34,228 nucleotides of DNA from NCBI GenBank assembly GCA_036795335.1, contig DAIREY010000001.1, positions 1 to 34,228 of the forward strand. The letters run 5' to 3'. Of the stretch, positions 1 to 20,876 are shown piece after piece (positions within the stretch are counted from its first letter, which is position 1; each line of letters opens with the position of its first letter). This DNA is from Patescibacteria group bacterium (lineage in GTDB: Bacteria > Patescibacteriota > JAHJAL01). A model generated the notes under the pieces. The model saw only the letters and a list, made by a program, of their open reading frames with translations. It ran no database searches and was not told where the DNA came from. The translations under genes were made by a program, and so were the position numbers.

Positions 1-40
1 GCAATGAAATCGCAAGGTAAAATTAGATAGTAACTCATTG

Positions 41-112
41 TGTCATACCCGCCTTCCGGGGTCCCCAATAAATCTGCAAGATTTTTGGGGTGGATTTGTG
101 CGGGTATCTTAT
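41..112 (+). repeat. Hairpin unit H1: outer stem ATACCCGC/GCGGGTAT enclosing inner GC stem CCCCAA/TTGGGG
   Basis: 45..52 pairs with 100..107 and 63..68 pairs with 85..90. The leader cgcaaggtaaaa..agtaa...tgtcatacccg is repeated at 200..243. Confidence 0.75.
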
Positions 113-231
113 CCGCAATAGGCAAGAAATTCCAAATCCCAAATCTCAAATTTCAAACGAAAGCAAGAATCAATTTTCAATATCCAATATCCAATTAAAA
201 TCGCAAGGTAAAAGTAAACAGTAATTAGAAT

Positions 232-286
232 TGTCATACCCGAAAAGACATGAGCGGAGCGAATATTCTTTGTCGGGTATCTCATT
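232..286 (+). repeat. Hairpin unit H2 (TGTCATACCCGA...TCGGGTATCTCAT)
   Basis: 236..243 pairs with 273..280. Near-identical inverted copy at 27463..27516, with about 4 mismatches in about 55 nt. Confidence 0.85.
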
Positions 287-470
287 CGTAACAATATGCA
301 AGGATCAATATCCAATATTTAATTTAAGCGCAAGAAATCTCAAACAGGAAACAAGGATCAATGATCAATATCCAATTTAATCGCAAGAAATTCAAAATTT
401 AAATCTCAAATTTCAAACGAGTCACATAGACAATTTTCGAGGATCGAAGTTATATTGTTTATAAAAAATT

Positions 471-1247
471 ATGTCACAATATTATCAAGCCAAGCGCACA
501 AAAAATATTTACAAACCGGGTAACCAAACGCCATTTAAGCTGTCGCGTTCCAAGATCGATTTGTTTGTGGAGTGTCCACGTTGTTTTTATCTGGATCGGC
601 GACTGGGAGTAGGACGACCACCGGGTTTTCCTTTCTCTTTGAACTCAGCCGTGGATAAATTGCTAAAACAAGAATTTGATATCCATCGCGCCACCGGCAG
701 CCGGCATCCTTTGATTGCTAGATACAATGTGGATGCTCGTCCGGTCGCTCATCCAAAATTGAATAGTTGGCGGGAAAACTTTATTGGAGTGCAATATCAT
801 CACGAACCAACAAATTTCATTATTACCGGCGCTATCGATGATTTGTGGATTGATTCGCAAGGTAATTATTTGGTGGTTGATTATAAATCTACCGCCAAGG
901 ACGAACAAATCATCATTCTCAATAAAGAGTGGCACGCCGGTTACAAGAGGCAAATGGAAATATACCAATGGCTGCTGAGAAAAAACGGTTTAACAGTTTC
1001 TGACACCGGTTATTTTGTTTATTGCAACGGTCGAACCGACCGACAAGCTTTCGATGGTAAATTGGAATTTGATATCACTTTGATACCATACGCTGGGCAT
1101 GATGATTGGATTGAACAAACATTGTTGGAAATAAAAAGTTGTTTGCTGTCCAATAAAATCCCAACATCTAATCCCAATTGTGATTATTGCGCCTACTATG
1201 ACACTAGGTACCAGGTTGAAAATGAAACGCCGGACAGTTTGTTTTGA
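471..1247 (+). CDS. PD-(D/E)XK (RecB/Cas4-like) nuclease with a CxxC...CxxC cysteine cluster
   Basis: Motifs read in the translation: GAIDDLWID, LVVDYKS (D/ExK), QMEIYQW (QxxxY), N-terminal ECPRCFY and C-terminal NPNCDYCAYY. No SD; the ATG lies about 15 nt after TAGACA-N18-TATATT. Confidence 0.75.
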   Translation: MSQYYQAKRTKNIYKPGNQTPFKLSRSKIDLFVECPRCFYLDRRLGVGRPPGFPFSLNSAVDKLLKQEFDIHRATGSRHPLIARYNVDARPVAHPKLNSWRENFIGVQYHHEPTNFIITGAIDDLWIDSQGNYLVVDYKSTAKDEQIIILNKEWHAGYKRQMEIYQWLLRKNGLTVSDTGYFVYCNGRTDRQAFDGKLEFDITLIPYAGHDDWIEQTLLEIKSCLLSNKIPTSNPNCDYCAYYDTRYQVENETPDSLF

Positions 1248-1602
1248 ATACGTAGTTGGTTATGAACCTTGGCATTGGTATTGGGAAAAAATGACTAATT
1301 ATATTTGTTGTCGAGAACAAAAATCTCGGCAATTTTTTGTATTTTTTGATTACTGCGCAATGTTTCGTTGAGATAATATAGTAAGAAATAACGGCAATTT
1401 CTTAATTTTATTTTAAAATTATCGATAGATTTATAATATGATTTGCCAAGCAACGCTGTTGTACTTGATGTCTGGCTGGAACAAAAAGATATTGTCACCA
1501 GCAATCATTAAGGTAAAATAATGTTGCACCAAAATGTTGATCAAAAAAAGTAGAGAAGAAATTGATTGCTGCCTTACCAAACTATAAAAATTAACTTTTT
1601 GC

Positions 1603-1608
1603 TATAAT
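1603..1608 (+). promoter_or_regulatory. Extended -10 element (TGcTATAAT) ahead of the 1637 gene
   Basis: tgctataat at 1600..1608, about 29 nt upstream of the ATG at 1637. No good -35. Confidence 0.4.
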
Positions 1609-1636
1609 AAAAACAAAGATCAATCATAATTTGCTA

Positions 1637-2353
1637 ATGAAAAATAACGACAAAAAATATTTTTGGTTGGCCAACGGAGTGGGTTTGATGGGAATAATAA
1701 TGTTTTTTGCGCCAATAATTTGGCCGATTGACATGTACGATGGCGGCGGCGCCATGATTTTTATTGGTATATTTTTGGCAATTTGCGGTCCGATTATTTC
1801 TCTGCTCTTTTGGCATCGCATGAGAGTGTTTGACGAGCTAAAAGATGAAACGAAATTGATTGTCCGTTGGCAATACGATCAATATTTATGGGAAAGTTTT
1901 GTTCAAGAAGAGATTAGCTTTCGTGCCGGTGAACAAAAATGGATGCAGCTGGTAGTTTTGTTTTTTTGTGTTGTGATCGGTGGAATATTTTGGTTGGCCG
2001 ATCCGGAGCCCGGTCGATGGGTGTTGCTAGTTTTGCTGGGAATAAATATTTTGATCGCCTTGATTGTCTGGCTGAACAACCGCGCGGTCACCGGTTGGAA
2101 AAACAGTCGTCAGGTGGAGTGCCGCATAAACGACAACGGATTAATTATTAATAATCAGCTGCATGTCTGGCGTGGTTGGGGAGCGCGGTTGGAAAATGTT
2201 CGAGATAGCCGCAACAAGATACATTTACTGGAAATAACTTATTCGACACCGAGCAGATATAGCCGACAATATTACACTATCCGAATCCCAATTCCTACTG
2301 CGGCAGAAAAAAATTTGCCGACTGTATTGAAAACAATATCCGCATTAATTTAA
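1637..2353 (+). CDS. Hypothetical integral membrane protein (about 4 TM helices plus a C-terminal soluble domain)
   Basis: Hydrophobic runs LMGIIMFFAPIIW, MIFIGIFLAICGPIISLLFW, LVVLFFCVVIGGIFWL, VLLVLLGINILIALIVWL. The ORF track starts at TTG 1631; I prefer ATG 1637. Confidence 0.7.
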   Translation: MKNNDKKYFWLANGVGLMGIIMFFAPIIWPIDMYDGGGAMIFIGIFLAICGPIISLLFWHRMRVFDELKDETKLIVRWQYDQYLWESFVQEEISFRAGEQKWMQLVVLFFCVVIGGIFWLADPEPGRWVLLVLLGINILIALIVWLNNRAVTGWKNSRQVECRINDNGLIINNQLHVWRGWGARLENVRDSRNKIHLLEITYSTPSRYSRQYYTIRIPIPTAAEKNLPTVLKTISALI

Positions 2354-2361
2354 AAATCGTC

Positions 2362-2895
2362 ATGCCAAAATTGATTGTACGTAATTCTCGACATCTGATT
2401 GCTTTTTTGATATTTATTGGATTATTATTTTTGACGGTCGGACTGGGTTTGTTGGTGTCGCAAATTTCCGGATGGTGGCAAGTCGATAGCGATAAAAAAT
2501 GGATTTTTGGGATTTTCGAATTTTTTGCACTATTTATCGGTGGCACAATTGCCGTTTCGCAAATCATAAATTGCATCAACCCGTTTGTGATGTTAAAAAT
2601 TGATGAAAAAGGTTTGTCATTTGGCACCGGTTGGCGGTATACACTATATTTGGTGCCATGGGAAGCAATTGAATCGGCGACAGTAGTTTCCAATGCCAAT
2701 TTTTCCATATTACAAATTGTCAAAGACACCTCTTCAGTCCAAATCATTGTCAAAAGCGGTGGTCAAATTCCAGCTTCATTGACTACTTCGGCCGGCATCA
2801 TGTATGTCGGTAATAATCTTACTCTATCCGGCGACTATATCGATTGCCCGGCTGGTTTGATTGTCGAGACAGTGAATGAAAAAATTAACAACTAA
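2362..2895 (+). CDS. Hypothetical membrane protein (2 TM helices plus a C-terminal domain), probably co-transcribed with the 1637 gene
   Basis: 8-nt gap after the previous stop. TM runs LIAFLIFIGLLFLTVGLGLLV and IFGIFEFFALFIGGTIAV. Confidence 0.7.
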   Translation: MPKLIVRNSRHLIAFLIFIGLLFLTVGLGLLVSQISGWWQVDSDKKWIFGIFEFFALFIGGTIAVSQIINCINPFVMLKIDEKGLSFGTGWRYTLYLVPWEAIESATVVSNANFSILQIVKDTSSVQIIVKSGGQIPASLTTSAGIMYVGNNLTLSGDYIDCPAGLIVETVNEKINN

Positions 2896-2993
2896 TTTTC
2901 GGTTGTCACAATAAATAATGAATATTTTCTAGAGACAATTTTTTTTCCAGGCAATAATGCAATAAATGACGATGTCTTATCTATCAGGAAAAA

Positions 2994-3034
2994 ACGAACC
3001 ACCACCGATTTAATAAAACGGTGGTGGTTGATAA
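2994..3034. terminator. Bidirectional intrinsic terminator between the convergent 2362 gene and giant ORF 1
   Basis: aaccaccaccg-atttaataaaa-cggtggtggtt: an 11-bp GC-rich stem with A-run/T-run flanks on both strands. Confidence 0.8.
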
Positions 3035-3063
3035 AAAGCGACCAGAAAAAAATAGAGAATTTG

Positions 3064-6000
3064 TTATTCAACTATGTTCATGACCCATCTATTTTGTCCA
3101 TTGAATCGAACCAGTTCTACCTTCCGAATAAAATTTCCAAGATTGTCTTTCATGTCATACATAAAATCATTGTCTTGTTCATTTTTTGTGTTTAATCCGA
3201 GTTCTGTTTTGATCTGGCTCGTAAGTTGATTCAGCGGAATGAACCCTCTTACCGGAAAATTTACATCAATTCCGATTATTTTATCATTATTATTTGCATC
3301 TCTTCTCCAGGCAAAACTGGTCGGCTTGATTTTGGCGCCCGGAAGTTCAAATTTGTATCGAAGTCTGGCAACCGGCCAATCGCCATTATTGGACTTTTCA
3401 ACCAAAATCTCAAAATTTGCTTGCTCTTCATCACTCATAAACTCTGCCGCATTGCTTCCGTTAATCAAAAAGATATAAGCTTTATCATTGTTAAGATGCT
3501 TAACATGATAAACATAACGTTTTTTGTCTTGTTTCCATCTGCTTTCAATCAGCCAATCTTCCGTATCAAAGATAAATTTGTAGTTATTATTGAGCACATG
3601 ATCAAAGACAATTTTTTCGTTGGCGCGGATCGCGTATCGAAGAATATTGGGCTTACGTAGTGCTTGCGGATTGGCGGTTAATAATTCGGTAATAATTTTA
3701 TTGCAGGGTAACTGATTATCAACGACTAATAATTTTTCCAAAACCTCAATTTGTTCTTCTTTGGTAGCAAAATGTGGTAAGGCATCAAAAATCACATCTT
3801 TGGCATCGGGATATTTTGCCAGTATGGCCAGTGATTTTCCGGCATTTTTGGCAAAAAGATCAATGACAACTTTCTTGTATTGAGATGGTTTTGGTTTTAA
3901 ATATGACATGAATAGTTTTGACATATTATCATTTTCCAAATGCTCCAACAAACTTGGTTTGTCGATTAAGACTTCTACAATACCGAGATCATCAAATGGC
4001 AGGATATCTGCTATTTTTTTGAAATAAATTATTTGTTCTTGATCACTTAGAAGGTTCAATTTATTTATAGCTATTTTGGCAGTAAAACTATTGAGCGTTG
4101 TATCAAGTATTACTTTTACTTCTTCCGGTTTGGTGATTCTGTTCATCAACTCGTGCCGACATATGTTTGATTTTAAAACATAAATATAAATCAAAATGTT
4201 TGATAGGATTTCCGGGTTGTTGGCCACTTCTTCGACTAAAAATTTCTGCAATTGTTCGTGCTGAATGTCATTGCTATTTTTGTCCGTTTCTCTGATAAAT
4301 TCTTCTATCAAATTTACCTTTGATGCGGCATCAAAATTGCTTAACGTTTTGATAAATAAATCAGTGGCATTTTGGTGGTTCATTTTTAACAATTTTTTGG
4401 CTTTGTCTTCCGTTTGAATATGCCGTCTGATGACCGAATAAATAGTTGAATCAACTAACTCATCTTTGTAATTTCCCGCCCGGAAATCATTTGTGATGAA
4501 TTCTCCAATAAGCATTGCATTATTAAGAACAGCATTGATTTGTTGAATTTTTTGGGGTGCTTGCGTGGGATATTTGTTCTCGATAAATTTTCGACATTTT
4601 GTCACATCTCCATCCGCCCACGCTCCAAATACCAAATCGGAGATTTGATATTTGATAGCTTTTTCGAAAAATTGATTATGATTGAGCAAATCACTCCTAA
4701 GATAAAATACTTTTTCGAGATTTTTTTTGTTTATCAATCCCTTGTCTTCCAATTTATCGATGATCTCGGCGGCAAAAAGTTCTTCTTCATCGGTAATTTT
4801 GTCCAAAATTATTTTTGCCGTGTCTTCATTGACATATTTTAAACTTTTTACAATTTTTTCCGGACAATCCATCCAGCTCGTAATAGTGTCGGTAAATTGA
4901 TGATCAAAAGCATATTTTATTACATCAGCTTTGTCTAGCGAAATAATATTTTGACCTAATAAGCTGCTGAAATCCTTTTCTGATAACAAATTTTTGTCAA
5001 TCAATTTTAGAGCGACTTCGGTCTGATCTTTTTGGTCAAATTCAGCTGATTTATTTAATATGATACTGACTGACTCTTTATCAACATATTCCAGCGTTTT
5101 ATCTAATTTATCTCGATTATCGATCCAATCTTCAACCAATTTTCTGAATTGATTATCATTAATAGTCCTTTTTAATATAGTTTCGTCATCAAATTTCAAA
5201 TATCCTTTTTCGATTAATTGATGCAAATTCTGCCAATATATGTGAGATTTTGTCCAACAAATATTAGCAATTTGTCCTCTGATACTAGGATCAAATGCCT
5301 CCAAATTATGAATTATTTGATCCAGTTTTTCTTTGTGAAGACAGTTGATTATTTCTACGACCTCACTTTGATCTTTGGCTAAATCTTTAATTTTTTCTAT
5401 TAATTCCGGACCATTGTTGGCGATATGTCCTTTGTACCAAATTTCGTTCCTGGTTTTCTTAGGTAATTTATCGAGGAATTTATCAAAATTTCCTCCCTTG
5501 ATCTGCTGCTCAATGAGCATTCGAGCTAATTCTATTTTTTCCTCGGCTGGTAATTTTTTTAGATCACATGTGCCAAGTAATTCATCGGCACTGGCCGGAC
5601 TGTATTTGCAGATCAATCGCAACTGATCATTCGTGTATTTTTTTAATGCATGATCTCTAATATATTCTTGAAAATGATACTTTGAAAAACTATTGGCAAA
5701 TATATTTCCTACATCTTCTGACTCCAATATCTCAGGGTTTTTCAAAACAAATAAGTAATAATCCTCATCAGTCAATTTAAATTGAGAATACATTTTTCCG
5801 ACCAATTTTGCTGAAAAATTATATTTCTCGATTGTCATTTCCATGTATCTTACATATCTGTTGGAATTATATATAGCAGTATAATAAGCATCATTCTGTG
5901 TATGATAAATATTAAATCTAATTGATCGGATGTAGTCATTGATTTTCTCTTCATTGCTAAATTTATCGGCCCATTTCAAAATCTTTGCATATTCCAAGGC

Positions 6001-9000
6001 TTTGAGATATCGACCATTTACGTTGTCGATATATAATTTATTTAACACTAATTCTTCCTTCTGTTCCAAAGTCACTGATGGTAGATCGCTTATCATCACA
6101 TCTACTATAATATTTTGCAATTTTTGCAATTTGGATAGGGAGCTTTCCGCATAGGTTGACCCATGAATATTTTTTCCTACCCACTCGTTGAATTCCTGAT
6201 AACTCGTATATCTTGCTAGTCGATTTGAAATTTCATTCATATCTATCTTGGCGCCAGTTTTGGTATATTGTTTTTCCATATCGAGATAAAGCGTTTGCAT
6301 CAATTTTTTTATTTCGTTGATGTAATTTATTGTTGGATTCTTCGCACTATCCGGTTGAGCAGAATTTTTTTGATCTTCTGTCTTAAAGTAATCATATAAA
6401 TTTTTGACCAAATCATCCAAATGATGACAGCTGGGTTTTAGATCACCAAATATTTGTTGCCAATCTTGGCCTTTTTCTATTTTTCCCTTCATCCAATCAA
6501 AAATTATCTTCTGACATTTGGCCGAAGCCTTGTGCCGAACAAATTCAAAGACGTTTTGATCATCGAGCAATAAATGATTGTTGTTTATTTTTGTTGCTAA
6601 CAAATCAATCAAATTATTCATTTTTTCGCCGAGTATCTGGTTTACTCCCTCATCTGTTTCTGTTTCATTGATTAATTTTACCGCTGAGTAAAAATATTTT
6701 TTTATCATTTGCCCGTTATTGGGATCAATGTCTTGTTTCTCGATCTTGAAATTCAAAAGGCCGACTATGATTTCATTGTATTTTGGATGATTAACTTCCA
6801 TACTCTCCAAAATGGCTGTCATGTCTTCCACTAACTTTATTTTTCCTTCCTGACTACTTTTGTAGTATTTATTTTTTAATATCAAATAATTACTATAAAC
6901 ATCCGGATAATATTTTTCGACTATCTCTACAATCTGATTGTTGAGTTGAGTTCTTTTGGTGCCGGCGGAAAGTGTTGTCGATTTCAGATTGGTGACGATC
7001 CACTCGATCAATTGATGATTTTTGGCGATCAATTCTCCCTCAGTATCAAATTTCAAAATATGTCTATCCAGTATTTTTTTGATCGATGCTTCATCGATTT
7101 TTTGACCGGAGGCCAAGAAATGTTTCTCTAATTCACGGATAATTTTTTCGTACTGCAAATTTCCCAATTCATTTAACAATAATTGCTTCTGTTCATCATT
7201 GGTTTCATACTCTGCCAGTAGTTGCAATATTTGTTCCTTCTTTCGGACATCTGTGACTGACTTATCTTGCAAATTTCGCAACAGCCGACTGAGCTGATCC
7301 CAATTTCGAGCGATATCGTCCTTGATCAAAACATGATTTCTGGATAGAAATTTCAACAATTTTTCCATCAACAGTTGGTTGTAATTGTTTTTTAAACTGG
7401 CGATAATTTTTTCAAAAACAGCTTTTTGCTGATCCCATTCGCATCGATCAAGAATACTTTCCAGTTCGCGTTGAGAAAAGTCTTTTTCGGTGGCAGGAGC
7501 TTCTTTGGAAAAATCGAAATAATATTGAGAATCATTGCCAAAACGCATTTCAACCGGCAAGTCCAACTTTTTGCCGGTAAGTCGGGAAAAAATTAATTGT
7601 TTGTATTTGGCAAACTGAGCGGAATTAAAATTATTGAAAATAAAATTTTCCAAAGCGCGTATACTATTTTCATCATTCCAATCAATTTTTTGCCATAAAG
7701 CCATAATATTTCGTTCATCCGCATCACAATCGGATAACAACTGAGGAAGATAGACATCAATATTATCGCTCATCATATGTAAGATTTCAGAATAAAGAGT
7801 ACTGTTGGGATCGATAATATTTAATATGTTGGCTTCGATCACTAATTCGGGTCGATTGGTCTGTTTGACGATTTCATAAAATTCCGGCAGAAATTGATGC
7901 AAATTTTTGTCATTGGTGTAAATCACGTACAGCTCGCGACACATGGCGGCGGTCAATTTTCCGGCCAAACTATTGAGTACCAGGCGAAAACGGTCGTTGG
8001 TTATATGGACACCGTCTAAATACTTTTGGGGATCAAATGCCCACATGATAAATACCGGGACAAAATCTTCTTGATTGTCGATATTTCCCATATTTTCCGG
8101 GGTGAATTCAACCGTTGCATTTGGTTGGTGATCATCCCCTTTCGCGGGAATATGGTCATCATGATCAATAGTGCCTTTGATACCGGCATAGTCATCGTAC
8201 AGACCATCCGTATTTGTTTCAATAAGGACAGGTGTTTCAACAATCGCATCGCCGACGGATGGTTTTTTCAATACTTTGTCGATATATTGCACCATCTTAT
8301 TAAACTCCATCACATCATGCAAATTGTTCAAATCGTATGCCGCTGATAGTAATGAAAATAATTCGAAAAATAATACCCGTAGACCATCGTAGTCCTTTTT
8401 CTTTTCCAGCTTTCGAATACGTCGTATGTATTCTTTGTATAGTCGTGTATCGCGGTACACTCTGATATTTTTTGTTTCTTTTTCAAATTCTTCTCGACTG
8501 ATATGCCGGCGTTTTATAGCATAAAAAGCTACTCGTCCCATTTGTTGTAAATCTTTTGAATCGGTTTTGTCACTCAACTCGTGCTGTTGATTGTACATCA
8601 AGATTTGCAAATCTAACTTATTTTTTAGAATATCAATAAATTCCGGCGAATACATTTCATAACTGCTAAATTTCAATATGCCCCCTACTCGCAGATGATC
8701 AAGAATTCTTTGCCAAACTTGTTTGACTGTCTCATTTTCGTTTTTGTCATACTTGGCAATATCACCCCAGCTGGAACATTCGATTAAATCAAAATCTTTT
8801 TTTTCTAGGTCAAAATTTCGAGCATCACCAACGATATCGTATTCGGTACAACAATCGGCAATATTTAATCCTTTTTGTTTCATCTGTGCTCGACTGGCTT
8901 GATGCATCAATGGTGAAAAATCCAAGCTATATATTTCCGGCAAAGCAGTAATTTCCTTTTTTTCCAGCAGTTGTCCATAGGCGCGCAACTCTTCATGCGG

Positions 9001-10518
9001 ACCGCTGGCAACGGACAAGATCGATTTGATCTTGTCGGAAAGCCCTTGCTCTCTGATGTATTGAATTCCTTTTTCATGAATTTGTTGATGACGACCGCCC
9101 TCAATAAATTTGACGTAGCCTTCGCACATCCATTCCGGAAAAGGAACGCCCGGATTGCTGCGAATAAAACGTTCGAAGTCTTGGAAAAACAATCTGCATT
9201 CCGGGACCATCCGACCTTTTTCGCCAGCTTTTTTGCCACTTTTCGGTGAGCCAATCTTGATGAGATTTGGCGTATAAGCGCCGGTAATTGTCGTGTTTCC
9301 ATTTACAATATTATCTTTTATGCTCGCACCAAAGTCTTTAATATTCGGGTTTTCACCTCTTTCCAGCCGGCCAAAGAACAAATCTGTTTGGCTCGGGTTG
9401 TTTGCCAGTTCTCGTTGTTCTTTGGTCAATGGATAACTGAATGATTGGCGGAATCGAAAGTCGATTTCGTATTCGTTGGTATTGATTGTCTTGGCCAGCT
9501 CGGGTTTTCTTTCTTGAAAAAAATTGTACAGTCTTTTTCTTAAAAACTGATTGAAATATCTTTTGCGAACATCTAAGTGGATACTTTCCGTTTCGTCTTT
9601 GTCGTATTTTTCCAAATATTTTTGGGCTTTTTGTACGGCATTTTTTCTAATTTCTTCTTTCTTTTCTTGCAAAAGTTTTTGTTTGTCGGCGGTATTGGTT
9701 TGGGCATCAATTAAAGATTGCGGGTAAGTTTTATTAACTTCTTGTTCGGCTTGGACCATAGTATCTTCAAATAAATTTGTGACATTTTGTCCATTTTTTC
9801 GATTTTTAAAATCAAAATATTTTAGAGTCAAAAGATCGATGTTGGCATTTATTTTCGACAATAACTCATTGGCTTTGTTCATAACCAATGAAGTTTCTTT
9901 TTCATCCAAATCAAAATTTATCGATTTGTCCTTTTCGGCCGGATTGAGTTTTGTAAACGCCAAAACACCTTGAGGCATCTTATGCCCTTTGGTTCCTTTG
10001 GTGTGTTTGAGAAATGTTTCAAAACTTGGTTTGTGATATTCACCGCCCAGTCGGCGAGACCAAATATTTAATTCTTTATATTCACAATTTTCCGGTTGCA
10101 AAATATGAATTATTTCATTAATTTTTTTCTCGTCGTTATTATCTATTACGTTGACAAAGGCATTGGACAATAGCCAGATGTTTTCCAAATTACCTTTGGT
10201 GACATCCAATTCGTTTGTCAAAGCATCGCCGCCGGTAAGCTCATTGATCCACCTGCTGTCATGAAAGTATAATCCTATTTCACTGAGTTTTGCTTCGGGA
10301 AATATTTGGTGAAAGGTTTTTATTTGCGCACAAGACAACAAGGTGCCGTTGACTCTTAAAAAGTCCGTGAGTTGTTTATCGTCATATTGATTTTCTTTAA
10401 TTTCCGGGTACCATTTTTTGAGCAGAGTTGTCTCAGCTTCCTCGTAATTGGCAGTTTTTTTGTGATTTAATTCTTGCAAACTTAATCTTTCTTTCTTGCT
10501 TATTTTGTCTTGGTCCAT
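3064..10518 (-). CDS. Giant protein 1 (2484 aa): conserved N-terminal module with a SAM-MTase-like fold, long helical repeat region, small C-terminal domain. Family unknown.
   Basis: Uninterrupted 7.4-kb ORF in AT-rich DNA. Paralogous to 14764..19416. No signal peptide or TM seen. Own promoter and terminator. Confidence 0.9.
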   Translation of the reverse strand: MDQDKISKKERLSLQELNHKKTANYEEAETTLLKKWYPEIKENQYDDKQLTDFLRVNGTLLSCAQIKTFHQIFPEAKLSEIGLYFHDSRWINELTGGDALTNELDVTKGNLENIWLLSNAFVNVIDNNDEKKINEIIHILQPENCEYKELNIWSRRLGGEYHKPSFETFLKHTKGTKGHKMPQGVLAFTKLNPAEKDKSINFDLDEKETSLVMNKANELLSKINANIDLLTLKYFDFKNRKNGQNVTNLFEDTMVQAEQEVNKTYPQSLIDAQTNTADKQKLLQEKKEEIRKNAVQKAQKYLEKYDKDETESIHLDVRKRYFNQFLRKRLYNFFQERKPELAKTINTNEYEIDFRFRQSFSYPLTKEQRELANNPSQTDLFFGRLERGENPNIKDFGASIKDNIVNGNTTITGAYTPNLIKIGSPKSGKKAGEKGRMVPECRLFFQDFERFIRSNPGVPFPEWMCEGYVKFIEGGRHQQIHEKGIQYIREQGLSDKIKSILSVASGPHEELRAYGQLLEKKEITALPEIYSLDFSPLMHQASRAQMKQKGLNIADCCTEYDIVGDARNFDLEKKDFDLIECSSWGDIAKYDKNENETVKQVWQRILDHLRVGGILKFSSYEMYSPEFIDILKNKLDLQILMYNQQHELSDKTDSKDLQQMGRVAFYAIKRRHISREEFEKETKNIRVYRDTRLYKEYIRRIRKLEKKKDYDGLRVLFFELFSLLSAAYDLNNLHDVMEFNKMVQYIDKVLKKPSVGDAIVETPVLIETNTDGLYDDYAGIKGTIDHDDHIPAKGDDHQPNATVEFTPENMGNIDNQEDFVPVFIMWAFDPQKYLDGVHITNDRFRLVLNSLAGKLTAAMCRELYVIYTNDKNLHQFLPEFYEIVKQTNRPELVIEANILNIIDPNSTLYSEILHMMSDNIDVYLPQLLSDCDADERNIMALWQKIDWNDENSIRALENFIFNNFNSAQFAKYKQLIFSRLTGKKLDLPVEMRFGNDSQYYFDFSKEAPATEKDFSQRELESILDRCEWDQQKAVFEKIIASLKNNYNQLLMEKLLKFLSRNHVLIKDDIARNWDQLSRLLRNLQDKSVTDVRKKEQILQLLAEYETNDEQKQLLLNELGNLQYEKIIRELEKHFLASGQKIDEASIKKILDRHILKFDTEGELIAKNHQLIEWIVTNLKSTTLSAGTKRTQLNNQIVEIVEKYYPDVYSNYLILKNKYYKSSQEGKIKLVEDMTAILESMEVNHPKYNEIIVGLLNFKIEKQDIDPNNGQMIKKYFYSAVKLINETETDEGVNQILGEKMNNLIDLLATKINNNHLLLDDQNVFEFVRHKASAKCQKIIFDWMKGKIEKGQDWQQIFGDLKPSCHHLDDLVKNLYDYFKTEDQKNSAQPDSAKNPTINYINEIKKLMQTLYLDMEKQYTKTGAKIDMNEISNRLARYTSYQEFNEWVGKNIHGSTYAESSLSKLQKLQNIIVDVMISDLPSVTLEQKEELVLNKLYIDNVNGRYLKALEYAKILKWADKFSNEEKINDYIRSIRFNIYHTQNDAYYTAIYNSNRYVRYMEMTIEKYNFSAKLVGKMYSQFKLTDEDYYLFVLKNPEILESEDVGNIFANSFSKYHFQEYIRDHALKKYTNDQLRLICKYSPASADELLGTCDLKKLPAEEKIELARMLIEQQIKGGNFDKFLDKLPKKTRNEIWYKGHIANNGPELIEKIKDLAKDQSEVVEIINCLHKEKLDQIIHNLEAFDPSIRGQIANICWTKSHIYWQNLHQLIEKGYLKFDDETILKRTINDNQFRKLVEDWIDNRDKLDKTLEYVDKESVSIILNKSAEFDQKDQTEVALKLIDKNLLSEKDFSSLLGQNIISLDKADVIKYAFDHQFTDTITSWMDCPEKIVKSLKYVNEDTAKIILDKITDEEELFAAEIIDKLEDKGLINKKNLEKVFYLRSDLLNHNQFFEKAIKYQISDLVFGAWADGDVTKCRKFIENKYPTQAPQKIQQINAVLNNAMLIGEFITNDFRAGNYKDELVDSTIYSVIRRHIQTEDKAKKLLKMNHQNATDLFIKTLSNFDAASKVNLIEEFIRETDKNSNDIQHEQLQKFLVEEVANNPEILSNILIYIYVLKSNICRHELMNRITKPEEVKVILDTTLNSFTAKIAINKLNLLSDQEQIIYFKKIADILPFDDLGIVEVLIDKPSLLEHLENDNMSKLFMSYLKPKPSQYKKVVIDLFAKNAGKSLAILAKYPDAKDVIFDALPHFATKEEQIEVLEKLLVVDNQLPCNKIITELLTANPQALRKPNILRYAIRANEKIVFDHVLNNNYKFIFDTEDWLIESRWKQDKKRYVYHVKHLNNDKAYIFLINGSNAAEFMSDEEQANFEILVEKSNNGDWPVARLRYKFELPGAKIKPTSFAWRRDANNNDKIIGIDVNFPVRGFIPLNQLTSQIKTELGLNTKNEQDNDFMYDMKDNLGNFIRKVELVRFNGQNRWVMNIVE
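4621..5127 (-). repeat. Two tandem 84-85 aa protein repeats within giant protein 1
   Basis: WIDNRDKLDKTLEYVDKESVSIILNKSAEF...LKLIDKNLL aligns with WMDCPEKIVKSLKYVNEDTAKIILDKITDE...EIIDKLEDKGLI. Confidence 0.6.
8590..9030 (-). other. Class-I SAM-dependent methyltransferase-like domain inside giant protein 1
   Basis: ILSVASGPHEE (motif I-like), IYSLDFSPLM (acidic end of beta2), FDLIECSSW (beta4), LRVGGILKF (post-II), in canonical order and spacing. Confidence 0.6.
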
Positions 10519-10551
10519 GGCAAATATATATGAAAAAATAAATTCCCAAAA

Positions 10552-10580
10552 AATATATCATCAAATACCTAAAAAGTCAA
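10552..10580 (-). promoter_or_regulatory. Sigma70-like promoter of giant ORF 1
   Basis: Minus strand TTGACT (10580..10575), 17 nt, TATATT (10557..10552). The ATG lies about 34 nt downstream, with no SD. Confidence 0.55.
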
Positions 10581-10592
10581 CCGCTATTTTAC

Positions 10593-10617
10593 AAAAAAAT
10601 AGCAGCCGAAGCTGCTA
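10593..10617 (-). terminator. Intrinsic terminator of the 148-aa gene
   Basis: Minus strand tagcagc-ttcg-gctgcta followed by ttttttt. Confidence 0.7.
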
Positions 10618-10629
10618 ATTAAAATATTT

Positions 10630-11076
10630 TTAAAAACTGGAAATGTGACCAATGTATTTTATTTCCAGCATTGATTCCTCTCCGGTCTTTCCAAACCCCA
10701 GAGAGTTTGACAATTTTGTTTTTTCATTTTTGTCAAAGAATTCACCTACTTTGGCCTTTCTTTGACCCTCAGAAATATACCAGTCGATTATCGTCGCGGT
10801 TTCAATCTTAATTCCGCAACTTGCAGTATAAATATGCAGATATTTGCTACCTCGATGACTGGGATAGCAAACTACATAATTTTTTTCCGATGGTTTACTT
10901 GTATCATCAGGTGTAGAAGATTTGCTTTTATTTATCATTGCAAAAATCTTCTTGGACAACTTTGTTTTATGCTCAGCGATATCCCAATGTTTTACTTTTC
11001 CGAGCATAATCACTTTTTTTAATTCTGGTATATACCAGATTTGTCCCTTAAAGGCATCTGTGACGTCGTCTTTCAT
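10630..11076 (-). CDS. Hypothetical protein (148 aa)
   Basis: Strong SD (AAAGGGGGCAATGACAA-ATG), own terminator, no recognisable motif. Confidence 0.7.
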   Translation of the reverse strand: MKDDVTDAFKGQIWYIPELKKVIMLGKVKHWDIAEHKTKLSKKIFAMINKSKSSTPDDTSKPSEKNYVVCYPSHRGSKYLHIYTASCGIKIETATIIDWYISEGQRKAKVGEFFDKNEKTKLSNSLGFGKTGEESMLEIKYIGHISSF

Positions 11077-11176
11077 TTGTCATTGCCCCCTTTTTTTTTA
11101 AAAATTCAGATGTTTGCACACTGTCAAGATATACAAAATATCAATAATAGTCAATGATTTCATTACACGATTCAAT

Positions 11177-11214
11177 AAAAAACAAAATAGCCTATTATTT
11201 GCATAATAAGCTAT
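11177..11214 (-). terminator. Intrinsic terminator of the 290-aa gene
   Basis: Minus strand atagcttattat-gcaa-ataataggctat followed by tttgtttttt. Confidence 0.65.
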
Positions 11215-11228
11215 TTAAAAAATGGTCG

Positions 11229-12092
11229 CTATTTTAGTTTTCCGAGCATCTGTTTGCTTTCGGCAATCAACGTCTCGAAAAATTTCTTTTTGAAAATATC
11301 CAAATTATCCTCCACCTCCTCGATAGTCAAATCCCTGGTGGGATTTTTTTCTATAACAGGAGGGGGTGAAGTTGTTGTTTCGACTTTAATTGGCAACGAT
11401 TCACCGCGGACAATACTGATGATTTCATCGTCAGTAAAATCATAAGTCTCGCCCTCTTCATTTTGCCATTCGATTTTCTTGCTTACCGGTTTATTTTCGG
11501 GAATATTATCAATAACCGTATCGATAATATTAACCCGAAAGTCGTCAGCGTTGTTGCTTGATAGAAAATCAAACAACTTGCTGCGAGTAAGCAACATCGG
11601 TTCAAGGTCTTTTTGGTTTACAAAGACCACCTCGAACTGATTTTTCTCTTTTCTCGGTTTGCACTTGTTGATGATGCCGAATTTATACATTTTTTGCATA
11701 AATTGGCATAATTCAACCGTCCTTTTGTCTGAGACGAAATAAGAATTTATTTCGTCAGCGCTTGGCATCTGATGGAAATTTTTACCCCAACCAATCACTC
11801 GCAGGTAAAAATTCTTTTCCATTTTGTCGATATCTCTTTTTGGCTGCAAAGTGATTTTTTCGGTTTCTTTGCAGTCTTTGAGAGTTTCATTGACGATATT
11901 CGTTACATAGCGGATATCCATCTTGATACAATCCGCTAGCAACAAACCCAGGAATCTCTCCTCGATTTCTCTTGGAAAGACTTTCTTAACTGGACGGGTG
12001 AGATATTCTCCCGCCTCCAAAAACGAGAGCATATATTTTAAATTTTTCTCAACGATGCTTTTGTAAGCATCGATCTTCTTTACAACTTCCAT
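11229..12092 (-). CDS. Hypothetical protein (about 287 aa)
   Basis: TAAGGAGGT SD lies 9 nt before ATG 12092 (MEVVKK...). The ORF-track TTG at 12101 is too close to the SD. No recognisable motif. Confidence 0.75.
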   Translation of the reverse strand: MEVVKKIDAYKSIVEKNLKYMLSFLEAGEYLTRPVKKVFPREIEERFLGLLLADCIKMDIRYVTNIVNETLKDCKETEKITLQPKRDIDKMEKNFYLRVIGWGKNFHQMPSADEINSYFVSDKRTVELCQFMQKMYKFGIINKCKPRKEKNQFEVVFVNQKDLEPMLLTRSKLFDFLSSNNADDFRVNIIDTVIDNIPENKPVSKKIEWQNEEGETYDFTDDEIISIVRGESLPIKVETTTSPPPVIEKNPTRDLTIEEVEDNLDIFKKKFFETLIAESKQMLGKLK

Positions 12093-12149
12093 TAATATCA
12101 AACCTCCTTAAATTTTTAATATTGCAAATTTTACTAAAAATTGTAAATA

Positions 12150-12163
12150 ACAAACGTGTTTGT
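12150..12163. promoter_or_regulatory. Palindrome ACAAAC-GT-GTTTGT in the divergent 290-aa/uvrB control region
   Basis: Perfect 6+6 inverted repeat, flanked by direct repeats ATTGCAA(A)TTTTACT at 12121..12135 and 12254..12267. Confidence 0.4.
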
Positions 12164-12196
12164 GTCAATAACAATTCTCCTCCTTTTTGAAAACCA

Positions 12197-12226
12197 TTGA
12201 CAATATGTAAAAAATAATGTTAGTGT
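12197..12226 (+). promoter_or_regulatory. Possible uvrB promoter
   Basis: TTGACA (12197..12202), 18 nt, TAGTGT (12221..12226). The -10 is weak. Confidence 0.35.
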
Positions 12227-12268
12227 AAAATTTGGTATAAATATTTTTTTACAATTGCAATTTTACTC

Positions 12269-14275: not shown

Positions 14276-14312
14276 ATATATTAATGAAAACTAAATAATT
14301 ATTGCATAACCA

Positions 14313-14341
14313 TTGACAAATATATAATCTATGTCTACAAT
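14313..14341 (+). promoter_or_regulatory. Sigma70-like promoter of the 108-aa gene
   Basis: TTGACA (14313..14318), 17 nt, TACAAT (14336..14341). Confidence 0.6.
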
Positions 14342-14387
14342 CTAGACATTAATTTTGAAAATTTAAAAAGAAAGGAAGATGATATAA

Positions 14388-14714
14388 ATGGCTATAGACA
14401 GTAATGTCATTATTGCTGGATTTCAGAATGCCATCATAAAAATCGGAGGACACCTGCAAGTCCTCCCCGATATAGTTAATGGTATATCGGAGATAAAGAG
14501 TCTTTTGAATCAGTTAATACAAAATTCAAAAGATCAGTTACCAAGCCATGCTGATCAAAATGGCAAAAGCTATATTGACAGCGTGATGGAAAAAATGACC
14601 CAAACGGGTCAAGTCTATTCCGAAAACCTGGCGCTCAAAAAACATAATCATGAGCTCCAGGAAAAAATCAAACTCCTCGAACAGGAAATCGAAAAATTGA
14701 AAAAAGAGGAGTAA
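14388..14714 (+). CDS. Small coiled-coil protein (108 aa)
   Basis: SD AAAGGAAG 9 nt before the ATG. C-terminal heptad-like LQEKIKLLEQEIEKLKKEE. Own promoter and terminator. Confidence 0.75.
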   Translation: MAIDSNVIIAGFQNAIIKIGGHLQVLPDIVNGISEIKSLLNQLIQNSKDQLPSHADQNGKSYIDSVMEKMTQTGQVYSENLALKKHNHELQEKIKLLEQEIEKLKKEE

Positions 14715-14720
14715 AAAAGT

Positions 14721-14762
14721 AAAATCTCAATGATATTAAATTATGTCATTGAGATTTTTTTT
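14721..14762. terminator. Bidirectional intrinsic terminator between the 108-aa gene and giant ORF 2
   Basis: aaaatctcaatga...tcattgagatttt: 13-bp stem followed by a T-run, with an A-run on the left for the minus strand. Confidence 0.8.
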
Positions 14763-14763
14763 G

Positions 14764-17700
14764 TTATTTCGTTACCTTGAAAATCCAATTTCCGTCATTA
14801 TCCAATTTTTCATATCTAAGTTTTATAGCATTCAAAGAAGCAATATAGCCTTTCGATCGGATATCATCCAAGAATTTTTCCGGAAAATCATCGCGATGGA
14901 TAAAGCCAAGTCGTTTATTGTTGTCTCTGGCTTCCAATCCGCATACCGTTCCATGCTCATCTAAGGTCAAATAACAATCATTATTACATATATCGACAGT
15001 TGTATTAATTAATTTTCTTTTGTCTAATAAATTAACTCCTATGTCTGAAGAATTTTTCAGAATAACTTGTAGTTCATAATATTTTTTATCTTCGGATTTA
15101 ATTTTGCAAAAACTGTCTTCTCCATTAAAAATTTTTACTACTCTTTTACCCCCCTCCGGCCGTTTCAAGTAATAATTATTTTTTCCTATTTTTTCTATAT
15201 CCCAATCTTTTAGATTCAAAACCAGCTTGTTTTTTAGCGCGATATAAAATAAATCTTTTGGACAAAAATCTGTCAGGCAACTAAAGCTTTCGGGATAGAT
15301 TTGCAGGCTAGGATTATTTGCTGCCACTCTCATAAAGAATGATCTTGTGTGTTTGTTGTAATGTTTTTTGAACAATTGAGCGAAAATATTAGATCTTAAT
15401 GAATTTTCTTGTTTATGAATGACCAAAAATAATGCTAGTGTTAATCCTTTTTCTCCTTGATCGGCCAGATACAAGATATCATCAGTAGAGTGAATATCTA
15501 ATAGTATCGCCACATCTATTGCTTGATTGTTGTAGTTCATCGCTTTACGCAAAATTGTGCTATTATGAACTGCTTTGGGGAAAGCAGAGATGAAATGTAA
15601 AAATTTCTGTTGGTCAAAGTCTCGCAATGTATTCTGTAAAATTTTGGTTGCCGTTTTGTTGTCACAATTACTTATCATGCTGATTTTTTCAAAATTTTCT
15701 CCTACCCAATCAACTACCTGTGCCAAATTTTTAATCGATAAAATTTCTTGGCCGATCAGTATATTTGTTGTTTCTTTGTGCAACAATAAATCCATATTAT
15801 TGATCATTAAATTATTAATTTCAACAATATCGAATTGTGCTTTTACTTTCCAATTTTTGTCCGATGTGGATCTGGTAATCTTTCTCGCCAAAAACATTAT
15901 TTTGCGGTAGTCACTGGGATATTTTTCCAAAATTAGTTCTAATATTACATTATCAAACTCGTCTATTTTGGCTGTCGTTGGATCGTCCAAATTATTTTCC
16001 TGATAGCTCAAATATCTACCGGCCAAAAAATCGATCAATTCTGAATCATCCGACATTAATTTATTGAATTCATCAGTGACAACTTCTCTATCGATTACAT
16101 TATTACTTTTTTCTAAATGATTAATTTTGAAATCATTATATTTTTTTATCATGATTTCCATTTCAATTTTGTGAATTTTATTTTGAATCTCATCCAAATA
16201 GCCGCTATCCTGAAAAAAATATTTCTCCACAAATTTATATGCTTTCAATTTATTTGAGTTTTCCAAATTTTCCACCAACAATCCAAAACTGGTCACAAAA
16301 TTATCTACACTATCTGATGATGGTTTTTCGTTCTCAAAGATATTTATCATCTTTATAAAGTAATTTTTCAAGTCATCGGGCAAATCTTCGGAATTAGTCA
16401 TTTTTAAGACTTGTTGATTGTAAATACGTTTACTGAATATATCCAACAAATCACCTTTCAATAACTTATTTGGTATATTAATATTTATATTTTTCGGAGC
16501 ATTATTCATGATTATTCTGGCATATTTAGTCATATTTTTTTCATCAGTTTTTTCCGCCAAAAATTTATTGACTAATTCAACCGTATTATTATTTAACCAA
16601 TCAATATTCTGGATATAGGCTTTCTTAATTTCCTCATCGATATTTGAACTAAACAAAACATCAGCCAAAAATAATTCCGGAAACTTCAACATCATCTGCC
16701 AAACTTTCTTTCTTAATTCATTATTGCCTTTTACCAACGGCCATATTCGCGCATCATACACTAACTGAATTCTATCCACCGAATTTTCAATCAAACTCAT
16801 TATTTCCGGAAGCAAAACGGCTAATTTGCTATTTTCCAAACATTTTTGATACAATTTTTGGCAAGATTTCAGATCCAAATAGCCCACCAATTCGGTCAGC
16901 ATCACTTTTATCTGGTCCAAACTCAAGGAGTCACTTTGTACATGTAATTCAATATTCTTAATCGCTTCCAAATATATTTGAATTTTTACTTGTTCGGCTT
17001 TTTTATCCTTGCGCTTTTTTTGCTGCTTCCAATCTTGGCGAAAATCATTGATTGCGTTTAGTAAATTTGACAATTCGTTTGCTTCTTTTTCCAAACCTCT
17101 TTTTTGGCACTCGGTGCGATAAATAACAATCGATAATTCCAAATATTTCAAATTTTCCAAGTCTTCCTTGGCAAATAGTTTTGTTATTTCTTTGTAAAAA
17201 ATATCATGCAAATTGTTATCATCATAAATTTTGACATGGCTCATTTTCTGCTCATATTCAGCTAGCGAAACATCTCTGGTCTTAATTCCCTTGAACCAAA
17301 CGCGCGGTTTATCAATTCTTTTTTGTTGATCTTTGTGATTGCTATATTTCTCATCAATGTTGTATTCCAAAATTTTCATATCCAAATCATTGGTCAAGAC
17401 ATCGATAAACTGTTGGTTGTATCTTTTGTAACTATAAAAACGGATAATACCGCCATTTTTTAAATGTTGCAGTGATTTGTACCACATCTTTTTTACCACT
17501 TCTTCTTCGTTCTTGTTGCCATGGGTATCTTTCGAGAATTGAGCAATATCATCCCAACTGGAGCATTCAATCATGTCAAAATCTTTTTCTGACAAATCAA
17601 AGTTTTGCGCATTGGTATTTGGCAAATCTATGCCTTTATCAAAAATGTCCAATCCATTTTCTCTCATTTGTTCTCGACTAGAGGAGAGCATAGATTCTGA

Positions 17701-19416: not shown

Positions 19417-19452
19417 GTTTGACGCACTAAAAATGTGTAAAAATATAATCGC

Positions 19453-19481
19453 ATCATAATATCAAAAATACTATCTGTCAA
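19453..19481 (-). promoter_or_regulatory. Sigma70-like promoter of giant ORF 2
   Basis: Minus strand TTGACA (19481..19476), 17 nt, TATGAT (19458..19453). Confidence 0.55.
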
Positions 19482-19596
19482 TCATCAAGTCATGATAGTA
19501 CATAATAGTAAAGGTCTTTAGATTGAATAATACATTCAAATGAGTTAATTTATAAACAGGTAGTTGTTTTTTAAAAGAAAGGGCGTGACAAAGCAA

Positions 19597-20061
19597 ATGG
19601 TCAAAGAAATGAAGGAAAAAGCAAACGATAACTCGCTTCTTTATCAAGAATTGAAAAAATACATTCAAGAACTCGAACCGGAAATTTTTTATCCGGTTCC
19701 ATACAAAAAAAATGTGAACATAATGCCGCCGGCAATAAAAGAGACTTCGCAATGGTTTGTTGAATTGCCGTGCTACAACGCCAACATTATGAAGTCCAAC
19801 ATCCAAAAATTAGCTGATGAACAATTGATTCAGCTTAAACAAGAAAACGAAGTTGTCTATTTTCGCAAAACGAAAAATTGGGACAAAAAAGATAACCATC
19901 CGCTGAATCCCGGTTCGGAAGTGTTGGCAGAGATAAAAAAAGAAATAAAAGATTTGCGTGGTGAAATAAATAATATAAAACAGCGACTGGCCCAAAAAGA
20001 TGCGCAGATCATCAAGTTAACAAAAATTATCCGGGCAGAAAATATCAGAAAAGAAACATAG
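19597..20061 (+). CDS. Hypothetical protein with a C-terminal coiled coil (154 aa from ATG 19597)
   Basis: AAAGAAAGGG lies upstream. The ORF track starts at TTG 19564. C-terminal EIKKEIKDLRGEINNIKQRLAQKDAQIIKL. Confidence 0.7.
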   Translation: MVKEMKEKANDNSLLYQELKKYIQELEPEIFYPVPYKKNVNIMPPAIKETSQWFVELPCYNANIMKSNIQKLADEQLIQLKQENEVVYFRKTKNWDKKDNHPLNPGSEVLAEIKKEIKDLRGEINNIKQRLAQKDAQIIKLTKIIRAENIRKET

Positions 20062-20066
20062 ATTAT

Positions 20067-20108
20067 AAAAAAGCAGTGTGACGTCATGCCACGAACTGCT
20101 TTTTTTAT
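20067..20108 (+). terminator. Intrinsic terminator
   Basis: aaaaagcagt...actgcttttt followed by a T-run. Confidence 0.75.
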
Positions 20109-20134
20109 TTGTATTTAAATATTATAAATAAATA

Positions 20135-20163
20135 TTGACTAATAGCCAGTTTCGTATTACACT
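20135..20163 (+). promoter_or_regulatory. Sigma70-like promoter of the 20210-20864 two-gene unit
   Basis: TTGACT (20135..20140), 17 nt, TACACT (20158..20163). Confidence 0.55.
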
Positions 20164-20209
20164 TTCGTCGAATTTGCCAAATTTAAAAACAAGGAAAGGG
20201 GGAAATTTT

Positions 20210-20599
20210 ATGTTAGCTGAAAAGCTAAAAAAAGTTCTCAGCAAATTTGATCTGCTTGATCTGCAAATTGCTGAGATCAAGCAGAGACTTGATAAGCAAG
20301 AGCAAGTTTCTGAAGTCAAAGAGATGCTTGATGAGCATCTTAAGCAAGTGAAAAAACTGCACGACAAATTTCTTGATGTTACTGTCAAAAACGTCGTGGC
20401 AGAAATAATCAGCAAAAATTTATTGACTGGGCACATCGATCCATACGTAACTCAGTCAATACGTGAAGCCATGCTTCCTTATCAGGAGGAACAGGCCAAA
20501 CTCTCCAACCATTACCAAAAGTTATTTGAAAAATTTGTTGGTAATGAGGTGGAGGAAGAACTAGCAAGCGTTATAAACAAAAAAGAAGGAGGAAAGTAA
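20210..20599 (+). CDS. Small coiled-coil protein (129 aa)
   Basis: SD AAGGAAAGGGGG 7 nt before ATG 20210. The ORF-track TTG at 20135 lies on the promoter. Confidence 0.75.
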   Translation: MLAEKLKKVLSKFDLLDLQIAEIKQRLDKQEQVSEVKEMLDEHLKQVKKLHDKFLDVTVKNVVAEIISKNLLTGHIDPYVTQSIREAMLPYQEEQAKLSNHYQKLFEKFVGNEVEEELASVINKKEGGK

Positions 20600-20600
20600 C

Positions 20601-20864: not shown

Positions 20865-20876
20865 ACGAAAACATTG

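Follow-up and report, generated by a model that had tools for sequence, protein, structure and literature searches.

The 34,228-bp stretch of DNA analysed here (the window) is one complete contig of a Patescibacteria group bacterium, and it carries on its minus strand two open reading frames (ORFs) coding for very large paralogous proteins. Giant 1 is encoded at 3064..10518 (2484 amino acids, aa; HPN67030.1) and giant 2 at 14764..19416 (1550 aa; HPN67035.1), together 12.1 kb or 35% of the 34-kb contig. ORF translation and exact-sequence look-up resulted in the annotation 'hypothetical protein' for both. The two proteins were alignable over aa 1-760 with 28% identity (BLASTP, E 1e-76). No transmembrane segment or signal peptide was predicted in giant 1, where the maximum Kyte-Doolittle 19-residue window was 1.27. 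Each giant protein contains a domain with the fold of class I S-adenosylmethionine (SAM)-dependent methyltransferases. This domain, in which motif I is a variant, is probably functional, of the UbiE-like Methyltransf_11/25 type, and the catalytic core of the giant proteins.

The domain of giant 1, delimited with AlphaFold2, Foldseek and the comparison of a family profile with PDB sequences, spans aa 440-690 (8449..9201), and that of giant 2, 41% identical to it, aa 475-733 (17218..17994). Both domains and all motifs given below lie on the minus strand. An earlier reading of the DNA, made from the sequence alone, had placed four methyltransferase-like motif blocks at 8590-9030 and in a second copy, about 500 aa into both proteins. 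Translation of the minus-strand ORFs showed all four blocks at these places in both giants, and the distance from the N-terminus was also correct (aa 497-643 in giant 1, aa 534-686 in giant 2). The extent had to be revised, since the folded domain is larger, about 250 aa, and adds three N-terminal helices and beta6/beta7 beyond that interval.

In giant 1, motif I, SILSVASGPHEE (SILSV-ASGPH-EE; aa 499-510, 8989..9024), comprises beta1 and the variant cofactor loop. IYSLDFS (aa 529-535, 8914..8934) is beta2 ending in Asp533 and followed by the D.S..ML helix, and DIVGD (aa 561-565, 8824..8838), beta3 with its loop, aligned to 'gdmreL' of 3d2l and 1y8c. FDLIECSSW (aa 576-584, 8767..8793) covers beta4 and the post-beta4 loop with the family signature D-x-x-E-C-S-S, and LRVGGILKF (aa 609-617, 8668..8694) is beta5, the equivalent of 'L.pGG.l' in Methyltransf_11/25. 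The corresponding motifs of giant 2 are VLSLGSGPHEE (motif I; aa 538-548, 17773..17805), IYSLDLS (17698..17718), FDMIECSSW (17554..17580) and LKNGGIIRF (17437..17463). In a sliding window of 50 alignment columns, the identity between the paralogs was 40-50% over aa 489-654 compared to 8-36% outside the domain; the block is the most conserved segment of the pair, as the sequence-only reading had stated.

The family to which the two proteins belong is rare. An exhaustive HMMER search with the two-paralog profile among 1.84 billion representative proteins resulted in 17 relatives, 13 of them at E <= 1e-10, with lengths of 605-1825 aa and the block 170-460 residues from the N-terminus. A family alignment (A2) of 18 domain sequences was used for further comparisons. 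Searched with its profile, the PDB sequences gave 3d2l (E 2.8e-5), 1y8c (9.6e-5) and 3mgg (8.6e-4), and 23 of the 29 matches listed were SAM-dependent methyltransferases. The segments of post-beta3 D565, beta4 D577 and beta5 G613 aligned with those of the three named structures. Methyltransf_11 (best E 5.2e-9) and Methyltransf_25 (best 9.8e-8) were each matched by 15 of the 18 members, Methyltransf_31 by 9 and Ubie_methyltran by 8 (best E 9.6e-7). Significant matches to the methyltransferase fold were hence obtained at the level of the family, both with the profile against PDB and with individual members against Pfam. The full-length relatives P0032 and P0033 exceeded the curated Pfam cut-offs: P0032 scored 32.6 bits on Methyltransf_11 (cut-off 21.2), and both passed the Ubie_methyltran cut-off with alignments extending back across motif I. 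The membership of the window proteins in the superfamily follows from their transitive homology to P0032 and P0033 within the family (E down to 1e-19). A word-indexed protein search with the giant 1 domain or the 18-member alignment returned zero matches and missed known members as well, even the paralog in the window, so this null result carries little weight. One relative, MEX0896333.1 (P0040), bears the NCBI name 'class I SAM-dependent methyltransferase [Patescibacteria group bacterium]'. This family member of 1325 aa (E 1.2e-12 with the paralog profile) has the architecture, ASGPHEE and DIVECSS in common with the giants, and within the domain its identity to them is about 26-30%.

The AlphaFold2 model of giant 1 aa 440-690, computed with the 18-sequence alignment, had a mean predicted local distance difference test score (pLDDT) of 89.5 and a predicted template modelling score (pTM) of 0.89. 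In the model three N-terminal 'lid' helices are followed by beta1-alphaA-beta2-alphaB-beta3-beta4-alphaD-beta5-alphaE-beta6-beta7, which in this prediction is the element order of class I methyltransferases, so the proposed Rossmann topology was recovered in the order of the predicted elements. The strands were predicted at aa 499-503 (beta1), 528-533 (beta2), 561-563 (beta3), 576-581 (beta4) and 609-619 (beta5), and the motifs assigned beforehand to beta1 and its loop, to beta2 ending in Asp, to beta4 and to beta5 coincided with these elements. Foldseek found 1033 matches in PDB at E <= 1e-3, the best being 1y8c (2.6e-9). The best 50 of the 1033 were all methyltransferase-fold proteins with a probability of 1.00; among the best were the StiD O-methyltransferase, MtfA, TylM1/DesVI, 3dlc, PMT2 (a phosphoethanolamine N-methyltransferase), CmoM, NmbA, METTL6 and MnmM.

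A chance resemblance to an unrelated fold is effectively refuted by these results. It would be suggested by the weak Pfam E-values of single sequences (0.0024-0.13), by PDB sequence searches with one or two sequences, which gave chance matches only (isoleucine-tRNA ligase, ribosomal protein L36, a GGDEF protein), and by the poor AlphaFold model obtained with two sequences (pLDDT 48). Against it, the profile search of PDB, the Pfam matches of individual members, the confident model and Foldseek agree as independent lines of evidence.

The loop after beta1 reads S-h-(A/G)-S-G-P-H-E-E, with Ala or Gly at the first glycine position, the middle Gly kept and His at the third; a G.G.G sequence was not found in either giant protein. 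According to the model, (A/G)-S-G-P-H would occupy the positions of G-x-G-x-G. This register was deduced because V503 is the last residue of beta1 and E509 the first of the helix, and because the Methyltransf_11 match of giant 2 starts at aa 542 (profile position 4). With the Methyltransf_31 match starting at aa 537, the Pfam matches cover motif I of giant 2. Active enzymes with Ala at the first Gly and a residue other than Gly at the third are known, such as UbiE ('AGGTGD') and glycine N-methyltransferase (GNMT; 'ACGTG').

In class I enzymes, SAM and the substrate are bound at the C-terminal ends of the strands. The family-invariant residues were located at these ends in beta1 to beta4 and also on beta5. 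Of the 25 columns without variation among 12 full-length proteins, 20 were inside the methyltransferase domain. The conserved residues are S502, A/G504, S505, G506, P507, H508, E509 and E510 in beta1 and its loop; P527 and D533 at the end of beta2; D561, G564 and D565 in beta3 and its loop; D577, E580, C581, S582, S583 and D585 in beta4 and its loop; G613 and R/K616 in beta5; and Y468 and H481 on the lid helices. D533 (D571 in giant 2) was present in all 18 domain sequences and all 12 full-length proteins. S502, P507, E510, E580 and S582 were invariant as well, P527 and R/K616 were found in 18 of 18, and S505, G506, D577, C581, S583 and G613 in 17 of 18. D561 and D565 were conserved in 15 of 18 each, the latter being Asn in giant 2. 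The conservation in homologs expected by the sequence-only reading for the SGPHEE loop and the acidic residue of beta2 was therefore observed, with S505, G506 and P507 invariant or nearly so.

The single exceptions at G506 and at G613 are both UGA codons read as Gly. They belong to P0041 (locus L010, 4511..6865), where the translation showed Trp at the conserved Gly columns of the family. The gene has 36 in-frame TGA, 2 TGG and only 6 GGN codons, and the GC content of the locus is 22%; it therefore comes from a UGA=Gly lineage (code 25, Gracilibacteria/Absconditabacteria-type), and the apparent Trp residues are the conserved glycines. In this way P0041 keeps the SGP and beta5 glycines by means of TGA codons. 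Locus L010 contains two head-to-tail family members, at 4511..6865 and 6884..9022, the second cut by the contig end; together with the pair in the window this means that paralog pairs occur in two distant lineages. Such pairs might form heteromers or stem from repeated duplication.

The domain is under purifying selection. In comparison with an ortholog fragment of about 76% identity (P0030, locus L009), the nonsynonymous divergence (dN) was 0.086 in the domain, the lowest value within the N-terminal 590 aa, versus 0.13-0.20 upstream, the synonymous divergence (dS) being saturated. The dN/dS against the sister contig (L001) was unusable with 10 substitutions only. The active-site conservation, the low dN and the glycines kept in P0041 speak for a cofactor site that works rather than one that has decayed, and judged from these sequence features the domain is less likely to be a degenerate SAM-binding module than an active enzyme.

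Several results weigh against a functional methyltransferase. Neither window protein reached the Pfam cut-offs by itself: giant 1 alone matched Methyltransf_25 at E 0.0024 (19 bits, cut-off 27), and giant 2 alone gave sub-threshold matches to Methyltransf_31, _25 and _11 at E 0.01-0.06 (16 bits versus 27 for Methyltransf_31, 14.4 versus 21.2 for Methyltransf_11). The alignments to solved methyltransferases all begin at beta2 and none covers motif I; the earlier assignment of motif I is based on the structural model and the Pfam coordinates of giant 2. The model is based on only 18 sequences, and the Foldseek TM-scores were moderate (0.36-0.54) with an often high root mean square deviation. Such scores would be in line with a core that has diverged, carries additional lid helices and has a disordered insertion (model residues 211-220). 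A loop lacking the third glycine and carrying His-Glu-Glu could affect or block SAM binding, and methyltransferase folds are at times inactive or perform other chemistry. Among the nearest structural neighbours are methyltransferases for small molecules, for peptide or sugar amines and for tRNA, a range that does not discriminate between substrates, and no conserved operon partner of the long-form proteins was found across the family loci.

Part of these points would suit a pseudo-enzyme or SAM sensor, in which the fold, and perhaps the binding of SAM or S-adenosylhomocysteine (SAH), was kept and methyl transfer lost, leaving a structural, regulatory or ligand-sensing module in a scaffold. The replacement of G-x-G-x-G by (A/G)SGPH and two Glu, the lack of GD after beta3 in giant 2, the motif I that could not be aligned to known methyltransferases by sequence, the scores of the window copies below the Pfam cut-offs and the fact that the domain is never a free-standing enzyme all speak in favour of this possibility. 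However, the strongest conservation of the family is at the cofactor and substrate site, including the ribose-binding Asp, and the polar cluster of E580, C581, S582, S583, H508 and E510 would be needless in a purely structural module. The lowest dN of the N-terminal 590 aa and the comparable loop substitutions of the active UbiE and GNMT also oppose it. A decayed or sensory domain is consequently regarded as unlikely. The methyltransferase fold proposed by the sequence-only reading was borne out by the fold matches, the topology and the residue conservation alike.

In class I enzymes the Asp at the end of beta2 is the canonical ligand of the SAM ribose hydroxyls, the position of D565 is the canonical contact site of the adenine N6, and the position of FDLIECSSW is where catalytic or substrate-contact residues are placed. 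In the mechanism that we infer for the domain, from SAM binding to catalysis and the nature of the substrate, SAM would bind at the C-terminal ends of beta1, beta2 and beta3, with the variant loop (A/G)-S-G-P-H taking the role of G-x-G-x-G. The invariant Asp533 would bind the ribose hydroxyls and Asp565 (Asn in giant 2) would contact the adenine. The methyl group would then pass to a nucleophile held by the family-specific invariant residues around the cofactor, possibly His508/Glu509/Glu510 at the start of alphaA, Glu580-Cys581-Ser582-Ser583-(Asp585) after beta4 and Tyr468/His481 on the lid. The long, mostly alpha-helical remainder of the proteins probably recruits or scaffolds the substrate. 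With this large helical body and the acidic and polar substrate site, our guess would be a macromolecular (protein or RNA) or a cationic target.

A different SAM chemistry on the same fold, such as aminocarboxypropyl or aminopropyl transfer, carboxy-SAM synthesis or SpnF-like cyclisation, was considered as well. SpnF, a [4+2] cyclase of methyltransferase fold, was among the best 50 of the 1033 Foldseek matches, CmoA-type tRNA (cmo5U34) entries (4iwn, 4gek, 1im8) were among the weaker PDB sequence matches, and the invariant E-C-S-S and H-E-E clusters are without counterpart in typical Methyltransf_11 enzymes. As nearly all the best sequence and structure neighbours are true methyltransferases and no biosynthetic gene cluster surrounds any family member, such a chemistry is improbable.

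The closest known proteins by both profile and Foldseek comparison are small class I methyltransferases of the Methyltransf_11/25 group, above all the structural-genomics proteins 3d2l and 1y8c, with 1wzn, 1ve3 and 3dlc in the same group. The layout from beta2 to beta5 is shared with the 3d2l/1y8c group ('LD.S..ML', 'gDmr.l', 'fD.v.C.ds.nyl', 'L..GG.l.f'), and a Cys/Ser-rich post-beta4 segment is found at the same place, LCDSLNYL in 3d2l and ECSSFDNL in the family. In contrast to these free-standing enzymes of about 245 aa, the family domain is embedded in large proteins, carries (A/G)SGPHEE and ends beta4 with an invariant Glu; the Pfam group of 3d2l and 1y8c carries the canonical G-x-G-x-G. 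The possibility that Cys581 is catalytic, as in thiol-based enzymes of the m5C/m5U type, was rejected because there is no Pro-Cys or ENV and because the Cys at the aligned position in 3d2l and 1y8c is non-catalytic.

UbiE, of the UbiE/COQ5 C-methyltransferase family, has Ala in place of the first glycine of motif I ('AGGTGD') and an acidic residue behind the loop. Ubie_methyltran was not matched by the window proteins, in contrast to the 8 of 18 members mentioned above, and the architecture of UbiE/COQ5 is unrelated to that of the giant proteins. No quinone-biosynthesis genes were found among the window genes, and to our knowledge Patescibacteria are generally without respiratory quinone pathways. 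Amine N-methyltransferases (TylM1/DesVI, MtfA, CalS10, KedS8, CypM, NmbA, phosphoethanolamine N-methyltransferase) recurred among the best Foldseek matches, and a weak match to the NCBIfam daptide_MTase was found in the family. The acidic residues E510, E580 and D585 at the presumed substrate site might suit a cationic amine substrate. However, the identity to these enzymes is only 10-19%, a generic likeness of the fold, the family is without a biosynthetic cluster, and substrate-binding elements in common with these enzymes were not identified.

A DNA methyltransferase of a restriction-modification (R-M), BREX or other defence system is very improbable, in agreement with the sequence-only reading. 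Such a function might be suggested by the variable, island-like DNA, by the PD-(D/E)XK nuclease gene at 471..1247 and by a single weak N6_N4_Mtase match in one family member (E 0.025). Nevertheless, [NDS]PP[YFWH], PC[QS] and ENV are absent from both giant proteins, leaving no N6/N4 or C5 motif, and the sequence after beta4 reads E-C-S-S-W. A target-recognition domain could not be recognised, and the best 50 of the 1033 structural neighbours are small-molecule, peptide, RNA or uncharacterised methyltransferase folds. The giants are neighboured by UvrB, an aminoacyl-tRNA synthetase, a response regulator and unknown proteins, without restriction or defence genes. PADLOC gave no match for the giants and six neighbouring ORFs, PHROG gave no meaningful match, and viral contigs contained zero relatives of the family. 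A phage or defence origin, tried as a candidate, was rejected on the same grounds.

The family consists of a long form of 1000-2484 aa with 'ASGPHEE' and a short form of 626-680 aa with 'ASGPLQE', 'ASGPYEE' or 'GSGPAEE'. The domain is always 230-540 aa into proteins of 626-2484 aa, and the family proteins are soluble, with neither a transmembrane segment nor a signal-peptide-like N-terminus (maximum Kyte-Doolittle 19-residue window <= 1.52). An N-terminal module of about 90 aa is conserved in most members; it matched no known family, and its profile found nothing in PDB. A helix-turn-helix (Sigma70_r4) suggested for this region by P0040 was rejected, as 1 of 9 members matched and the PDB profile search was null. 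The regions of the giants other than the methyltransferase domain gave no Pfam, NCBIfam or PDB-sequence match. In the helical region downstream of the domain, positions 808-869 of the full-length profile A3 gave calbindin D9k / S100G EF-hand matches at E 0.03-0.3, which are not significant. A short beta-rich segment closes giant 1 (about aa 2330-2484), giant 2, P0033, P0036, P0040 and P0032 at the C-terminal side. It has a loose '...G(Y/F)hh....VFVP / GFIP...' signature, with two copies in P0036, and aligns poorly; although reminiscent of S1/OB- or SH3-like modules, no such domain was found when full-length members were scanned with Pfam (E <= 0.05).

The family is found almost only in Patescibacteria, including recoded (UGA=Gly) lineages of the candidate phyla radiation (CPR). 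Pattern-based scans resulted in five loci in genomes of 185,579 species and three in a metagenome collection. The named carriers are Parcubacteria, Yanofskybacteria, Buchananbacteria and unclassified Patescibacteria; one more is a 5-kb contig binned as Bdellovibrionales, which may be a mis-binning. The short-form members in metagenome-assembled genomes of Yanofskybacteria and Buchananbacteria adjoin a homologous TrmB-family winged-helix regulator of about 245 aa in differing orientations (L007 3114..3854; L008 4377..5114). No paper describing this giant-protein family was found in a literature search, and one preprint on CPR methyltransferases covers resistance-type and R-M enzymes.

The giants are accessory and not core genes, as follows from sibling genomes that lack them and the surrounding DNA. 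Giant 2 lies in an extra block of about 9.7 kb (14276..24024), which also holds a 697-aa ORF (21855..23948) and small ORFs, without recognisable families; the block was delimited by synteny with the loci of two sibling patescibacterial genomes (L014, L015) and by tblastn. It is situated between uvrB and a conserved gene of about 110 aa and is absent from both siblings. There UvrB is 77-80% identical, uvrB is about 1.5 kb from the same aminoacyl-tRNA synthetase gene, and the gap holds only homologs of the window genes 24025..24357 and 24469..25317. No family member was present within 10 kb of the sibling loci (tblastn of all window ORFs). Similarly, the 10-kb upstream flanks of the siblings contained no counterpart to anything in the window region 1..12268, which lies left of uvrB and includes giant 1 and the nuclease gene. 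The uvrB gene thereby looks like a hotspot flanked by variable DNA.

The domain is a divergent variant of a very well-known fold, auto-annotated already in one relative, and is ordinary by itself. The uncharacterised giant, lineage-restricted architecture around it is somewhat more interesting. The genomes of Patescibacteria are very small, and their large lineage-specific proteins are mostly without assigned function, so a credible enzymatic core is a concrete entry point to the function of the family. In a genome of about 1 Mb, a size taken from general knowledge, the two giants probably make up more than 1%. The (A/G)SGPHEE loop and the invariant E-C-S-S make class I methyltransferases more varied in sequence than known so far, and due to these two variant segments the window proteins were left 'hypothetical' by standard annotation. 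A more far-reaching and rather doubtful proposal is that the domain is the catalytic head of an undescribed giant soluble accessory family whose helical bodies recruit a symbiont or host macromolecule for methylation. If true, the episymbiotic lifestyle would involve a protein or RNA methyltransferase of a new, scaffold-tethered type. The giant-gene proteins of Omnitrophota are likewise very large, largely uncharacterised and from metagenome-assembled genomes of uncultured bacteria, but far larger than those of the window; they are reported to be implicated in cell-wall degradation by predatory bacteria (bioRxiv 10.1101/2023.11.21.568195). A relationship of these proteins to the present family was not found, and no search aimed at it was made.

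The other genes of the window are chromosomal and ordinary and code for the PD-(D/E)XK nuclease, UvrB, a class Ib aminoacyl-tRNA synthetase with tRNA_bind, a response-regulator receiver, a PMT_2 glycosyltransferase and Ig-like surface proteins. The window had zero tRNA genes and zero Rfam matches. The nearest named relatives of its UvrB are from 'Patescibacteria group bacterium' with 76-77% identity, which marks the organism as a patescibacterium (CPR). The aminoacyl-tRNA synthetase (450 aa, Trp/Tyr-type; 25298..26650, minus strand) has a C-terminal tRNA_bind (Trbp111/EMAP-II-like) domain, a fusion kept in both sibling genomes. The adjacent paralogs at 29694..31526 and 31629..32570 on the plus strand contain Big_1/Invasin_D3, fn3 and N_BRCA1_IG Ig-like domains and are 38% identical over 97 aa; the sibling locus L014 has a homolog, and the two are probably surface or adhesion proteins.

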